This document shows, piece after piece, positions 1 through 3,925 of a stretch of DNA of 3,925 bases. The position numbers and the translations under genes were made by a program. Position 1 is the first letter of the stretch, and each line of letters opens with the position of its first letter. The stretch lies in the IMG/VR virus record IMGVR_UViG_2713896784_000030; one strand, 5' to 3'. This DNA is from a virus. Lineage: Duplodnaviria > Heunggongvirae > Uroviricota > Caudoviricetes. The notes below the pieces were generated by a model that saw only the letters and a list, made by a program, of their open reading frames with translations, ran no database searches and was not told the origin of the DNA.

Positions 1-162
1 ATTACGAGCCAGGGCTTCCGGATGGCTGTCGTCGTACAGTTCCGGGAACGTCATCCCCAGTTCGAAATAAGTCCGGGCTATTTCAGCTGCAGGAACTTTC
101 TCACCATCAGGATATGCCCAGGCATTCATCGCCATGCGGATGTGCTCATGTTTGATTTTCAT
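1..162 (-). CDS. ydaT: Partial CDS (first 54 codons; continues beyond window start): YdaT-like prophage protein
   Basis: Not in the ORF track because it runs off the window. Hand translation of the minus strand from ATG (plus 160-162) gives MKIKHEHIRMAMNAWAYPDGEKVPAAEIARTYFELGMTFPELYDDSHPEALARN, open to position 1. AAGAGG-like Shine-Dalgarno about 10 nt upstream. The start overlaps the last 17 nt of the upstream ydaS-like gene. Name from recalled similarity to Rac prophage YdaT and from synteny, not from a search. Confidence 0.55.
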   Translation of the reverse strand, partial: MKIKHEHIRMAMNAWAYPDGEKVPAAEIARTYFELGMTFPELYDDSHPEALARN

Positions 163-469
163 GAATCATTTGCCTCTTGATGCTTCGGGTATGATCGTTT
201 TCGTCATTTGGTTGCTTCATCGACATATTCTGCGAATAACATGACGAGCGTCGTAAGTATGTCCAATCAACATCAGGACGAAGTTCTTCACACAGGACAC
301 CACCTTTTGTTGCTCGTTCAATCGCAGGACATCTCTCAGCAGGCAACTGACGTACACCTTTGATCCATTGATTTACGCTTGGAGGAGATACACCTAAAAG
401 CCTAGCCATTGCTGATTGCCCACCGACAACAGCACAAGCTCGTTTGAATGAATAGTTATCTTTTTTCAT
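146..469 (-). CDS. ydaS: Cro/YdaS-family helix-turn-helix regulator (107 aa)
   Basis: The ORF-track entry 146..490 starts at GTG. I place the start at the internal ATG (plus 467-469) because GGAG lies 8 nt upstream on the coding strand. Product MKKDNYSFKRACAVVGGQSAMARLLGVSPPSVNQWIKGVRQLPAERCPAIERATKGG... has the HTH signature of YdaS/Cro-like regulators. Divergent from the repressor gene across an operator region. Stop is TGA at plus 146-148. Confidence 0.8.
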   Translation of the reverse strand: MKKDNYSFKRACAVVGGQSAMARLLGVSPPSVNQWIKGVRQLPAERCPAIERATKGGVLCEELRPDVDWTYLRRSSCYSQNMSMKQPNDENDHTRSIKRQMIHENQT

Positions 470-496
470 CGAATGAACTCCAAAAAACACACAATA

Positions 497-526
497 ATAT
501 TAGGCTTAGCCTAATGCAATTGTCAA
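497..526 (-). promoter_or_regulatory. Sigma70-type promoter for the ydaS/ydaT operon (pR-like)
   Basis: On the minus strand there is a perfect -35 TTGACA (complement of plus 521-526), then an 18-nt spacer and TAATAT (complement of plus 497-502). Both elements are overlapped by the operator palindromes at 499-515 and 526-540. Inferred from consensus only. Confidence 0.45.
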
Positions 527-565
527 TAGGCTATGCCTAACGCTTCGAGAGTAGGTATTGCCTAA
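499..565. promoter_or_regulatory. Operator cluster: three TTAGGC-N3-GCCTAA-type palindromes between the divergent ydaS-like and racR-like genes
   Basis: Site A, 499-515: ATTAGGCT-T-AGCCTAAT, a perfect 8+1+8 inverted repeat. Site B, 526-540: aTAGGC-TAT-GCCTAa. Site C, 551-565: TAGGT-ATT-GCCTAa, one mismatch. The palindromes are seen directly; which protein binds them (presumably the adjacent repressor) is inference. Confidence 0.55.
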
Positions 566-593
566 TGCGATGCGCATAGGAGACTATTAAGCA

Positions 594-1070
594 ATGCTTA
601 GTGGTAAAGACTTAGGCCGAGCGATAGAGCAGGCCATTAACAAAAAAATTGCATCAGGAGCCGTCAAATCAAAGGCGGAAATCGCACGTCATTTCAAAGT
701 CCAACCACCATCAATCCATGACTGGATTAAGAAAGGTTCGATAAGTAAAGACAAACTTCCAGAACTATGGCGTTTCTTTTCTGATGTGGTTGGTCCAGAG
801 CATTGGGGGCTTAACGAATACCCCATACCAACCCCATCCACTTCAGATACAAAAAGTGAACTTTTAGACATAAACAGCCTTTATCAAGCCGCCTCTGATG
901 AAAAAAGAGCAATTGTGGCTTTCCTCTTATCTGGAAATGCTACGGAGCCTAGTTGGGTTGATCATGACGTTCGTGCCTACATTGCCGCAATGGAAATGAA
1001 GGTAGCTAACTATCTGAAAAATCAAGAATCAAAACGGAAAAGCCAGAACATCACCAAGACAGGAACTTAA
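594..1070 (+). CDS. racR: Prophage repressor, RacR-like (158 aa), occupying the cI position
   Basis: ATG at 594 with AGGAG at 578-582. N-terminal HTH-like segment (...AVKSKAEIARHFKVQPPSIHDWIKKG...). The gene lies between two outward-facing promoter/operator modules, as lambda cI lies between pL and pR. Length and sequence agree with my recollection of Rac RacR; not verified by search. Confidence 0.8.
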   Translation: MLSGKDLGRAIEQAINKKIASGAVKSKAEIARHFKVQPPSIHDWIKKGSISKDKLPELWRFFSDVVGPEHWGLNEYPIPTPSTSDTKSELLDINSLYQAASDEKRAIVAFLLSGNATEPSWVDHDVRAYIAAMEMKVANYLKNQESKRKSQNITKTGT

Positions 1071-1164: not shown

Positions 1165-1205
1165 TTAGGCGTAGCCTATTGACAAGCAATTAGGCATTTC
1201 CTATA
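1165..1205. promoter_or_regulatory. Second operator cluster (OL-like) with the same palindrome family
   Basis: Site D, 1165-1179: TTAGGC-GTA-GCCTAt, perfect core. Site E, 1190-1204: TTAGGC-ATT-tCCTAt, one mismatch. A weaker half-site-like element sits at 1146-1160. Same motif as at 499-565. Confidence 0.5.
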
Positions 1206-1207
1206 GT
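1179..1207 (+). promoter_or_regulatory. Sigma70-type promoter facing rightward toward ydaF-like, xis and int (pL-like)
   Basis: TTGACA (1179-1184), 17-nt spacer, TATAGT (1202-1207), both near consensus. The context cctaTTGACAa...TTAGGC... parallels the minus-strand promoter at 497-526, suggesting a duplicated promoter-operator module on each side of the repressor gene. Confidence 0.5.
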
Positions 1208-1307
1208 TTTCCCATACCAACCCATCCCGTCCCACACAATACAGGGCAATACCTAGAGTTACCCGGCAGTGGTCAGGGATTAAGTAGCCAGCCCGAGGCG
1301 TAAGAAC

Positions 1308-1538
1308 ATGACGGCAGGGTTCAACTTTAACTATGCAGCAGGTTTTTGTTCCGCTACCCCGGCGTTAAGGGGATATGAGGTCAGCATGGATACTCTTGAT
1401 CTTGGCAACAACGAATCTCTGGTGTGCGGCGTGTTTCCCAACCAGGACGGCACGTTCACCGCGATGACGTATACCAAAAGCAAAACGTTTAAAACCGAAT
1501 CTGGCGCGCGTCGCTGGTTAGCAAGAAACTCTGACTAA
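1308..1538 (+). CDS. ydaF: Small prophage protein, YdaF/YdfA-like (DUF1391-type), 76 aa
   Basis: ATG at 1308 with GAGG about 9 nt upstream. The C-terminal segment ...MDTLDLGNNESLVCGVFPNQDGTFTAMTYTKSKTFKTESGARRWLARNSD matches my memory of the small Rac/Qin proteins YdaF/YdfA. In K-12 this region is annotated as two short genes (ydaG and ydaF); here it is one continuous ORF. Position next to racR agrees with Rac synteny. Not verified by search. Confidence 0.6.
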   Translation: MTAGFNFNYAAGFCSATPALRGYEVSMDTLDLGNNESLVCGVFPNQDGTFTAMTYTKSKTFKTESGARRWLARNSD

Positions 1539-1652: not shown

Positions 1653-2144
1653 CTACAGATTGCCGTTCAGTTTTCTGGCCAACTCTTCAATAGATGGAGG
1701 TGATACGTAATCCGGATTTTTATTCATAAGAAACTGATTTTCACAGTACAGGCACCTGCTTTTATGAAAAAATTCATATTCTCTAACCGGGAATGGCTGA
1801 AGTATCGATACTATCTTTTGTCCAAAACATTTTGGACAAAGATGCATGATTATGCTGCCGCCGTTCACGGTTACCTCCTTCGAGTACACAAAAGTTCCCG
1901 ACTCAAGTTGGCTAAGGATATAACCTTCCGTCTGAGCCTCAAAGTTTTCAAATTCTGCAATTTTAGCTTTGAGAGAAGCATTTATTTCTTGATAAGTGCC
2001 CACCAGCTCAACGAGAGACACGCATTCGCGCTGAATAGATGCAAGCTTTGAGTTCAGTTCACCAATAGCCGCATTTACTTCAGCTTGAGTTTTTGCCTCG
2101 TTCATTAGTTTTGCAATCTGGGCGGTTTCACGAATAGCCGTCAT
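1653..2144 (-). CDS. Hypothetical protein: N-terminal coiled-coil plus C-terminal CxxC-X24-CxxC zinc-ribbon, no recognisable family (about 163 aa)
   Basis: The ORF-track entry 1653..2321 is trimmed to the internal ATG (plus 2142-2144). An alternative GTG start at 2168 has AAGAG 8 nt upstream. The upstream 5' extension runs through repeat-rich, noncoding-looking DNA. Product MTAIRETAQIAKLMNEAKTQAEVNAAIGELNSKLASIQRECVSLVELVGTYQEINASLKAKIAEFENF... has heptad-like hydrophobic spacing. It continues ...HLCPKCFGQKIVSILQPFPVREYEFFHKSRCLYCENQF... with two CxxC pairs. No hydrophobic stretch long enough for a transmembrane helix. Convergent with the ydaF-like gene and opposed to the pL-like operon. Confidence 0.6.
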   Translation of the reverse strand: MTAIRETAQIAKLMNEAKTQAEVNAAIGELNSKLASIQRECVSLVELVGTYQEINASLKAKIAEFENFEAQTEGYILSQLESGTFVYSKEVTVNGGSIIMHLCPKCFGQKIVSILQPFPVREYEFFHKSRCLYCENQFLMNKNPDYVSPPSIEELARKLNGNL

Positions 2145-2182
2145 TGCTGCCGTTAATTCAGCGATCACATTCAATACTCTTA

Positions 2183-2568: not shown

Positions 2569-2838
2569 ATGAGCGAACAGTACCTGATAACGCTCGACGA
2601 GTGGAAACCAAAACGGTTCAGTCTCCCAATAACAAACACTACCCTGGTGAAATACGGAAAACTAGGATACATCGTTCCAAGACCACAAAAAATTCGTGGG
2701 CGTTGGCTGATAGATCGCCGAGCAGTATTTGTTGGGCCTGGTGAAACGGGAATTGCGCCGGAAATTCATACTGGCGATGATGATGCACTGAAGGAGATTT
2801 TAACTCATGTCACCGAGGCCACGAAAAAACAGCACTGA
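2569..2838 (+). CDS. xis: Excisionase (lambda Xis-like), 89 aa
   Basis: ATG at 2569 with GGAG 8 nt upstream; the ORF-track start at 2560 is a GTG that overlaps the SD. N-terminus MSEQYLITLDEWKPKRFSLP... resembles lambda Xis MYLTLQEWNARQRRPRSL.... The 3' end overlaps the start of int by 32 nt, as in lambdoid phages. Confidence 0.7.
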   Translation: MSEQYLITLDEWKPKRFSLPITNTTLVKYGKLGYIVPRPQKIRGRWLIDRRAVFVGPGETGIAPEIHTGDDDALKEILTHVTEATKKQH

Positions 2839-3925
2839 CGTAGCCGGTCTTTACGAAAAGTTTGATCGCAGAACTGGCAGAGTTTACTACCAGTATAAAA
2901 ATCCTGTGACTGGAAAATTTCACGGACTCGGAACAGACAAAGGTAAGGCAGAAAAAATCGCTTCCACAGCCAATCAGCGAATAGCTGCAGCAGAAGCTGA
3001 ATATTTCATGCGCAAAATTGATGAAAGTCCGTCAGCAACAAAACGTCGGGGTATCAGATTAAAGGCATGGGTTGATCGATATCTGAAAATACAGGACACG
3101 CGACTGAAAAATGGAGATATTGCAGCTACAACTCACAAAGAAAAAACTCGAATGGCTGCATACCTGGTTTCCCGTCTGGGAAACCACCCATTGAAAGAAC
3201 TGGAAGTAAGAGACTTTGCATTAATACTGGATGAGTGGCTGGATAAAGACATGGTCAGTACAGCGAGAGTAAATCGTGGATTATGGGTTGATATTTATAA
3301 AGAAGCACAGCATGCAGGGGAAGTTCCTCCTGGATGGAATCCTCCGGAGGCTACCCGTAAACCGATCCCTAAAGTAACCAGAGCCAGGCTCACCATGGAA
3401 GACTGGCAAAAAATTTACAATGCAACGCCTGAAAAACACTTTATCCGTAACGCAATGCTTCTTGCGATTGTTACTGGTCAGCGCCGTGATGACATTTGCC
3501 ACATGCGTTTTTCAGATGTGTGGAACGAACACTTGCATATCACCCAGGGAAAAACCGGAATGCGTCTGGCGTTACCGCTTACACTACGCTGTGATGCCAT
3601 TGGGATAACGTTAAAAGAAGTTATTGATGGGTGCCGAGACAGAATATTAAGTCCATATCTAATCCATAGTCGGCACCAGAAACAACCGAAGCCGATGAGT
3701 AAAGACAACCTGAGCGACTACTTTGCCAAAGCACGGGATCTGGCTGGGGTAATTCCACCAGCAGGAAAAACTCCGCCAACATTTCATGAACAACGCTCTC
3801 TATCAGAACGGCTGTACCGTGCACAGGGTATCGATACAAAAACATTACTAGGACATAAAGTCCAGGCAACCACCGATCGCTATAACGATACTCGAGGTCA
3901 GGAATGGGTTAAGTTGGTTATTTGA
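2807..3925 (+). CDS. int: Lambda-family tyrosine integrase (site-specific recombinase), 372 aa
   Basis: ATG at 2807 with AAGGAG at 2791-2796. Extended similarity to lambda Int as recalled: TGQRRDD vs lambda TGQRVGD, PPTFHEQRSLSERLY vs PPTFHELRSLSARLY, LLGHKVQATTDRYNDTRGQEW vs LLGHKSDTMASQYRDDRGREW. This gives the catalytic Arg, His-x-x-Arg and Tyr in the expected order. TGA stop is the last three bases of the window. Confidence 0.95.
   Translation: MSPRPRKNSTDVAGLYEKFDRRTGRVYYQYKNPVTGKFHGLGTDKGKAEKIASTANQRIAAAEAEYFMRKIDESPSATKRRGIRLKAWVDRYLKIQDTRLKNGDIAATTHKEKTRMAAYLVSRLGNHPLKELEVRDFALILDEWLDKDMVSTARVNRGLWVDIYKEAQHAGEVPPGWNPPEATRKPIPKVTRARLTMEDWQKIYNATPEKHFIRNAMLLAIVTGQRRDDICHMRFSDVWNEHLHITQGKTGMRLALPLTLRCDAIGITLKEVIDGCRDRILSPYLIHSRHQKQPKPMSKDNLSDYFAKARDLAGVIPPAGKTPPTFHEQRSLSERLYRAQGIDTKTLLGHKVQATTDRYNDTRGQEWVKLVI

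Follow-up and report, generated by a model that had tools for sequence, protein, structure and literature searches.

Which protein reads the palindromic repeats that separate two divergent genes of an Escherichia coli prophage, and which promoters does it control through them? We considered this question for a stretch of 3,925 nucleotides from a virus of the class Caudoviricetes (IMG/VR record IMGVR_UViG_2713896784_000030), referred to below as the window. The region under study spans positions 495-601, between a ydaS-like gene on the minus strand and the start of the repressor gene racR on the plus strand. An original prediction, made by a model from the letters alone, had described operator palindromes of the form TTAGGC-N3-GCCTAA (N3 being three central bases) which overlap a leftward promoter. 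Based on the comparison with the Rac prophage of E. coli K-12, region 495-601 is very probably the control region of a Rac-type lambdoid immunity module, of the type of the right operator (OR) of phage lambda, and acts as an operator/promoter switch for the repressor RacR. This switch is already known from the work on K-12 and our observation is a rediscovery in a near-identical allele. A second cassette downstream of racR, similar to the leftward promoter and operator (PL/OL) of lambda, and a modular family of repressors are modest additions to it.

Operator sites and the ydaS promoter

We scanned the whole window for the pattern TTAGGC-N3-GCCTAA with ≤3 and with ≤2 mismatches and compared the counts to those obtained from shuffled sequence. 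With ≤3 mismatches there were 8 matches where 1.16 were expected, and none of the 200 shuffled sequences reached this number. With ≤2 mismatches we detected 5 matches where 0.12 were expected, and the maximum across 2000 dinucleotide-preserving shuffles was 2. The three palindromes that had been predicted at 499-515, 526-540 and 551-565 are present as described, and the shuffles exclude chance as their origin. Site A (499-515), the promoter-proximal site for the ydaS promoter, is a perfect 17-bp palindrome, ATTAGGCT-T-AGCCTAAT (8+1+8), whose core TTAGGC-TTA-GCCTAA at 500-514 has 0 mismatches. Site B (526-540, ATAGGC-TAT-GCCTAA) has 1 mismatch and abuts the -35 hexamer. Site C (551-565, GTAGGT-ATT-GCCTAA) has 2 mismatches, lies in the racR promoter zone and has its counterpart in the site at -42 in other genera.

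The scan also showed several elements that were absent from the original prediction. A degenerate fourth site, TTAAGC-AAT-GCTTAG, lies over the racR ATG (587-601, 3 mismatches). It corresponds to the published O3 (PMC9638921) and is nearer to the consensus in other genera at the same offset of -7. A lone TTAGGC half-site was found by pattern search within racR (612-617, plus strand), and this intragenic half-site is also recorded for K-12 (PMC5700373, PMC9638921). The remaining additions are a downstream cluster at 1165-1204 and a weak match at 1146-1160, to which we return below. The intergenic region holds at least three inverted repeats of the form T/ATAGGC-n3-GCCTAT/A, starting at 500, 526 and 551, in addition to the degenerate one at 587. 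A repeat finder grouped sites A to C with copies at 1164-1181 and 1189-1206 and gave spacings of 26, 25 and 25 bp.

Could the repeats nevertheless be a chance similarity in AT-rich intergenic DNA? Only the degeneracy of site C, of the ATG-overlapping site and of a downstream site E is in line with this explanation. It is contradicted by the 5 matches against 0.12 expected (0 of 2000 shuffles exceeded 2), by the regular spacing of 25-26 bp and by the conservation across genera, and we regard its probability as negligible.

Over the whole window a promoter scan reported no more than two sigma-70-like sites, namely the ydaS-ydaT promoter and a promoter downstream of racR which we call P2 (1179-1207). 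For the former the scan paired a -35 hexamer TTGACA (526-521, minus strand, read as TGTCAA at 521-526) with a -10 hexamer TAATAT (502-497, minus strand) across a spacer of 18 nt, and 10 of the 12 positions agree with the consensus. The -35 hexamer was correctly predicted to lie between sites A and B and has one base in common with site B. The -10 hexamer had been placed inside site A. It does exist at 502-497, but it overlaps only the outer 3-4 bases of the site. The operator between the divergent repressor and cro-like genes is multipartite and overlaps the promoters of both.

Conservation of the sites across relatives

To describe the variation of the sites we collected 46 distinct E. coli-type intergenic haplotypes of the stretch 497-586 from IMG/VR and from genome loci. 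Scans of IMG/VR with RacR and with the alignment of its N-terminal domain gave, among the matches listed, only E. coli-type relatives with 92-100% identity. A minor allele above 10% was observed in 1 of the 36 half-site columns, whereas the same was true for 26 of the 46 columns of N3 and linker bases (Fisher p = 6e-8, Mann-Whitney p = 4e-5; the haplotypes are related, so that the p values are indicative only).

The more distant loci showed either 58-64% identity over the full length of the repressor or a match of 65-78% to the N-terminal domain. Palindromes at -67, -42 and -7 from the repressor start were found in Mixta, a metagenome-assembled genome (MAG) of Pseudomonadota, Proteus, Klebsiella, Achromobacter and a Nitrosomonas MAG. 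The expectation that the palindromes are kept in homologous immunity regions was borne out in all of these genera. N3 varies freely in the distant loci (TAC, TTA, TAA, GTC, CAC and GCC were all encountered), and E. coli has one extra unit with offsets of -94, -68, -43 and -7. In Pseudomonas phages the putative recognition segment reads PPSVQGWINTG as against PPSIHDWIKKG, and the sites are altered. An Aeromonas locus with 65% identity in the N-terminal domain gave no site match at ≤2 mismatches. The presence of the sites tracks the RacR DNA-binding domain across genera. A search over 25 kb in K-12 Rac and 20 kb in the O157 prophage gave no matches at ≤2 mismatches besides the five sites that flank racR.

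Since the same half-sites recur across genera together with matching repressors, we read the specificity from these alignments as that of a widespread repressor family and not of this prophage. The half-sites had been proposed to define the immunity specificity of this prophage. They do belong to an immunity type, but the type is widespread and not the prophage's own.

The conservation pattern also bears on the nature of site A. A terminator scan flagged 515-499 on the minus strand with a 7-bp stem and a T-containing tail, so that site A might be an RNA or DNA hairpin, e.g. an intrinsic terminator, and not a protein site. However, the -10 hexamer at 502-497 implies a ydaS start downstream of the hairpin, which would place it outside the ydaS mRNA, and the tail ATTATTGTGT is a poor T-run. 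In the 46 haplotypes and at 11 diverged loci variation is confined to the 3-nt centre, while the stem sequence is invariant and shows no compensatory changes, as would be expected for base-specific recognition by a protein. The same half-site sequence recurs in sites B to E, whose palindromes are imperfect. We rejected the terminator-like match on position and conservation pattern and consider a hairpin to be highly improbable.

The binding protein and the switch in K-12

The corresponding region of K-12 Rac has been studied experimentally. According to Krishnamurthi et al. (2017, PMC5700373), the 123-bp racR-ydaS intergenic region contains three variant GCCTAA/TTAGGC repeats, forms three complexes with RacR in electrophoretic mobility shift assays (EMSA) and is enriched in chromatin immunoprecipitation (ChIP). 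Wisniewska et al. (2022, PMC9638921) found a single transcription start for ydaS by primer extension, with a TTGACA/TAATAT promoter whose activity is abolished by mutating TAATAT, and three promoters for racR, the strongest of which is leaderless. In their DNaseI footprints RacR occupied the ydaS promoter at the lowest concentration and the racR promoters at higher concentrations, and RacR alone covered the repeats and repressed transcription in vitro. They gave ATTAGGC as the motif of the RacR monomer and T/ATAGGC-n3-GCCTAT/A as the operator, with O3 over the racR ATG. A later paper of the same group counts four operators in the region (PMC11879457).

These results agree with what had been predicted for the window. 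The RacR-like neighbour as the binder matches the EMSA, ChIP and footprint data (PMC5700373, PMC9638921), and the occlusion of the ydaS/ydaT promoter by RacR at A and B matches the published footprint and repression (PMC9638921). The likeness to lambda OR had been noted as well, and the comparison with CI/Cro and OR was made explicitly for K-12 in PMC9638921.

How close is the window allele to that of K-12? The gene racR (594-1070, plus strand) encodes a repressor of 158 aa, the functional counterpart of lambda CI, and was assigned by its identity to K-12 RacR (92% over 158 aa), by the NCBIfam equivalog NF049929 (246.8 bits, cutoff 200) and by the RefSeq annotation. The intergenic regions are 93% identical, all half-sites have the same sequence and the same positions, and the ydaS hexamers TTGACA and TAATAT with their 18-nt spacer are the same. 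The ATG-overlapping site, the intragenic half-site and a downstream cassette, which in K-12 lies before ydaG/ydaF, are also common to both. The differences concern N3 of site A (TTA in the window, GAC in K-12), N3 of site B (TAT compared to TGT) and linker bases. Furthermore YdaS has 107 aa in the window and 98 aa in K-12, with another C-terminal tail.

In the mechanism that we propose, dimers of the helix-turn-helix repressor RacR would bind the 15-bp TTAGGC-N3-GCCTAA palindromes. Site A interlocks with the ydaS-ydaT promoter at its -10 hexamer (TAATAT) and site B at its -35 hexamer (TTGACA). Because A and B overlap the promoter hexamers, RacR bound at both would exclude RNA polymerase and silence the Cro-like ydaS and the CII-like ydaT. 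Site C and the ATG site, which would lie over the racR promoters, would be filled at higher RacR levels and lead to negative autoregulation.

RacR has competitors for the role of the reader, as the palindromes could mainly be operators of YdaS or YdaT. In K-12 YdaS represses its own promoter, although not racR (PMC9638921), and YdaT protects ∼100 bp covering the ydaS promoter (PMC11879457). The N-terminus of RacR shows weak Pfam matches to helix-turn-helix domains of the YdaS/Cro type, and a shared operator is therefore plausible, as for lambda CI and Cro. Set against this, RacR alone footprints the repeats and represses in vitro in K-12, the sites track the RacR DNA-binding domain across genera and the YdaT motif is a different one (ATGATT-n6-AATCAA), of which the authors found no copy in the intergenic footprint (PMC11879457). 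We consider a main role of YdaS or YdaT to be unlikely. This explanation overlaps with RacR as the reader more than it excludes it, and if YdaS and YdaT act on this DNA as well, they probably do so in addition to RacR and not in its place.

The RacR switch as such adds little to what has been published. Its use lies in the annotation of the ydaS promoter, the four RacR sites and the YdaT-box in the O157:H7 prophage.

A second cassette downstream of racR

Downstream of racR we observed a second pair of operator sites. Site D (1165-1179, TTAGGC-GTA-GCCTAT) has 1 mismatch and ends on the base with which the -35 hexamer TTGACA (1179-1184, plus strand, promoter scan) of P2 begins, a predicted rightward promoter that would be the PL equivalent. 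Site E (1190-1204, TTAGGC-ATT-TCCTAT) has 2 mismatches and overlaps the -10 hexamer TATAGT of P2 (1202-1207, plus strand, promoter scan). With a spacer of 17 nt and agreement at 11 of the 12 consensus positions, P2 is the best promoter match in the window. The two operator clusters are ∼665 bp apart and neighbouring sites within them are separated by 25-26 bp.

Two further matches were not counted as sites. The weak match at 1146-1160 has 3 mismatches; it is kept in K-12 and comes nearer to the pattern in E. ruysiae, where the mismatches number 2. Because of its degeneracy we did not call it an operator site. The second is an exact inverted match of 11 nt between site C (552-562) and 1245-1255, which is absent in K-12.

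When the ydaS promoter region is reverse-complemented it reads GTTAGGCATAGCCTATTGACAATTGCATTAGGCTAAGCCTAATAT, and P2 reads CATTAGGCGTAGCCTATTGACAAGC-AATTAGGCATTTCCTATAGT. We can see that the two are copies of one design. Across 11 diverged loci we collected 20 cassettes, 11 of the ydaS-promoter type and 9 of the P2 type, which follow one consensus, TTAGGC-nnn-(G/T)CCTA-TTGACA-n3-5-ATTAGGC-nnn-GCCTAATAT. The half-sites are conserved at ≥90% and N3 at 40-60%. In this design the distal operator and the -35 hexamer have one base in common, which ends the operator and is the hexamer's first T, and the right half of the proximal operator provides the TAA of the -10 hexamer. The hexamers and operators are interlocked, and therefore the repressor and RNA polymerase cannot share the DNA at either hexamer.

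The P2 cassette is kept in 9 diverged loci from Escherichia to Achromobacter, including Klebsiella phage KpF5. The distance between the repressor gene and the cassette is ∼90-150 bp in Escherichia, Mixta, the Pseudomonadota MAG (locus L008) and Proteus. In KpF5 the cassette lies 1.4 kb from the repressor gene with a DUF450 gene between them, and in Achromobacter it lies 0.8-1.4 kb past the end of a long S24-type repressor gene with further open reading frames between. Over all intact cassettes the distance is between ∼90 bp and 2.3 kb. In lambda PL/OL lies beyond rexAB. The DUF450 gene of the KpF5 locus (L016, 4649-5912) is in the position that rexAB hold in lambda.

What would such a promoter control? 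The cassette at 1165-1207 is most likely the PL/OL equivalent for the early-left operon, which it would control from ydaF towards xis and int. A terminator scan detected no plus-strand terminator-like sites between P2 and xis/int. For K-12 it has been reported that a fall of RacR raises the expression of ydaG, ydaF, ydaE, racC, kilR and ydaC 40- to 70-fold (PMC6765115), and that depletion of RacR raises xisR and intR ∼100-fold and leads to prophage excision (PMC11014345). The authors of the latter study remark that xisR and intR lie at a great distance from racR and that the RacR regulon still lacks a detailed characterisation. We found no description of the downstream sites in the RacR literature that we searched, which leaves aside a 2026 bioRxiv preprint on CRISPR interference against racR that was beyond reach.

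Taking these observations together we tentatively suggest that RacR bound at the PL/OL equivalent directly silences the early-left operon through to xis and int, that RacR oligomers might join the two clusters, ∼665 bp apart, in a loop in the manner of lambda CI and that RacR is the S24-less member of a broad repressor family. We hold this joint reading to be possible rather than probable. If true, it would account for the published 40- to 100-fold derepression of ydaG, ydaF, kilR, xisR and intR and for the excision. Repression of P2 by RacR would link a lack of the repressor directly to the transcription of kil, recET, xis and int and thereby to excision, an effect which the K-12 literature reports without a defined cis element.

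Several points weigh against the interpretation of both cassettes. The binding of RacR, the mapping of the ydaS promoter and the repression were shown experimentally in K-12 only, and we infer their transfer to the window allele as well as the function of the second cassette. RacR is not the sole reader in K-12, as YdaS and YdaT also bind or regulate the region. The racR promoters provide a further point. The position aligned with the -10 box of K-12 PracR3 (580-585, plus strand; alignment and the figure legend of PMC9638921) reads GAGACT instead of GAGAAT, and that aligned with PracR2 (544-549; alignment) reads TTCGAG instead of AGTAAG. Neither K-12 -10 box is kept in the window according to the alignment, and GAGACT is the commonest allele at 580-585 among the IMG/VR relatives listed. 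Because these bases differ, the autoregulation of racR may differ in detail in the window allele. P2 in turn is a prediction from hexamers and sites, and its operators deviate from the pattern, D at 1 position and E at 2. On the way from P2 to xis there is a convergent gene (1653-2168, minus strand), and read-through from P2 to xis and int in the window prophage is an assumption.

Two other characteristics of the P2 region were observed. The strongest C-over-G tract of the window (1198-1250, plus strand) starts at the predicted P2 transcript start, with 18 C and 4 G in 1208-1250. Its composition makes it a candidate Rho-utilisation site, which would fit the published silencing of Rac kilR by Rho/NusG. 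In addition the 13-nt sequence CCCATACCAACCC occurs exactly twice, at 822-834 within racR and at 1211-1223.

The repressor family and its domain architecture

Scans against Pfam and PHROG assigned RacR to no family, and the Pfam scan detected no S24 autocleavage domain. A comparison with the sequences of the PDB gave nothing significant (best expectation value E = 0.63). With no match in PDB, Pfam or PHROG, a structural model of the DNA recognition is therefore not anchored.

The N-terminal DNA-binding domain of RacR (594-833; 80 aa, 76% mean identity) is joined to different C-termini in loci L011, L013, L014, L017 and L018. The RacR-type tail, giving proteins of 158-161 aa, was found in enterobacteria and in phage KpF5. 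Peptidase_S24 is combined with the same N-terminal domain in Achromobacter (362-366 aa), Aeromonas (225 aa, locus L014) and the Pseudomonas phages (283-286 aa). The S24 forms of Achromobacter keep exact TTAGGC-N3-GCCTAA sites, and these CI repressors, as they contain S24, are presumably SOS-cleavable. That the same half-sites occur with different C-terminal domains across genera suggests a widely shared immunity specificity, with possible consequences for superinfection immunity between prophages whose hosts differ.

Genomic context and neighbouring genes

The window is part of a lambdoid prophage that adjoins potC in E. coli O157:H7 (strain 644-PT8), whereas K-12 Rac adjoins ttcA. Bases 1-2350 are 100% identical in many E. 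coli O157:H7 chromosomes (megablast). The gene order in 644-PT8 is replication genes, ydaT, a helix-turn-helix gene, racR, a DUF1391 gene, a hypothetical gene on the opposite strand, a truncated 3'-5' exonuclease, xis and int. In contrast to K-12 Rac, the early-left region of the window is without ydaG, sieB, kilR and recET and carries a PHROG 1244 gene and the truncated exonuclease before xis-int.

To the left of the operators lies the ydaS-like gene (146-469, minus strand), which encodes a Cro-type helix-turn-helix protein (Pfam YdaS_toxin E = 3.8e-30, P22_Cro E = 1e-8) with 85% identity to K-12 YdaS. It is followed by the 5' part of ydaT, the CII counterpart (1-162, minus strand; RefSeq 'toxin YdaT family protein'), which is cut at the window edge. 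By direct reading of the sequence we found a YdaT-box, ATGATT-CATGAA-AATCAA, which spans the ydaT start codon (152-169, minus strand) and has the same form as the K-12 YdaT-box ATGATT-n6-AATCAA of PMC11879457.

To the right the first gene downstream of P2 is a ydaF-like DUF1391 gene (1386-1538, plus strand; Pfam DUF1391 E = 6.6e-30, RefSeq annotation). The convergent gene at 1653-2168 encodes a protein of 171 aa of unknown function (PHROG 1244, E = 1e-57), with a coiled coil in its N-terminal half and Cys-rich CxxC motifs in its C-terminal half. It occupies the same antisense position as sieB in K-12 Rac and, because of this position, may be an accessory or exclusion gene. Further on in the direction of P2 lie the genes xis (2569-2838) and int (2807-3925). 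A run of 50 Ns at 2355-2404 lies inside the truncated 3'-5' exonuclease pseudogene and replaces ∼233 bases (compared to NZ_CP015831), so that later window coordinates are offset by 183 from the genome.

Comparison with known systems

A further system that can be compared is the PaaR2/YdaS/YdaT switch of prophage CP-933P in E. coli O157:H7 (PMC8630535 via PMC9638921). As far as its published description goes, on which alone the comparison is based, it has the same host lineage, the same layout of repressor, cro-like and cII-like genes and intergenic operators that are inverted repeats.

The system differs from lambda in several respects. Scans against Pfam and PHROG showed no homology of RacR to lambda CI, and the best PDB matches have E above 0.6; RacR is without a Pfam or PHROG family and without the S24 autocleavage domain. 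The RacR operators are 15-bp palindromes (6-3-6), and their half-site sequence is unrelated to the lambda operator. The RacR region of E. coli has four intergenic sites, and K-12 YdaS does not repress racR. Other characteristics are common to both systems. Divergent repressor and cro-like genes flank several imperfect palindromic operators, ∼2.4 helical turns apart, which lie over the lytic -35/-10 hexamers and over the repressor's own promoter, and the repressor mRNA is leaderless, as published for K-12. At the level of the sequence, a second pair of operators lies at the early-left promoter beyond the repressor gene, at times with accessory genes in between, as with rexAB in lambda.

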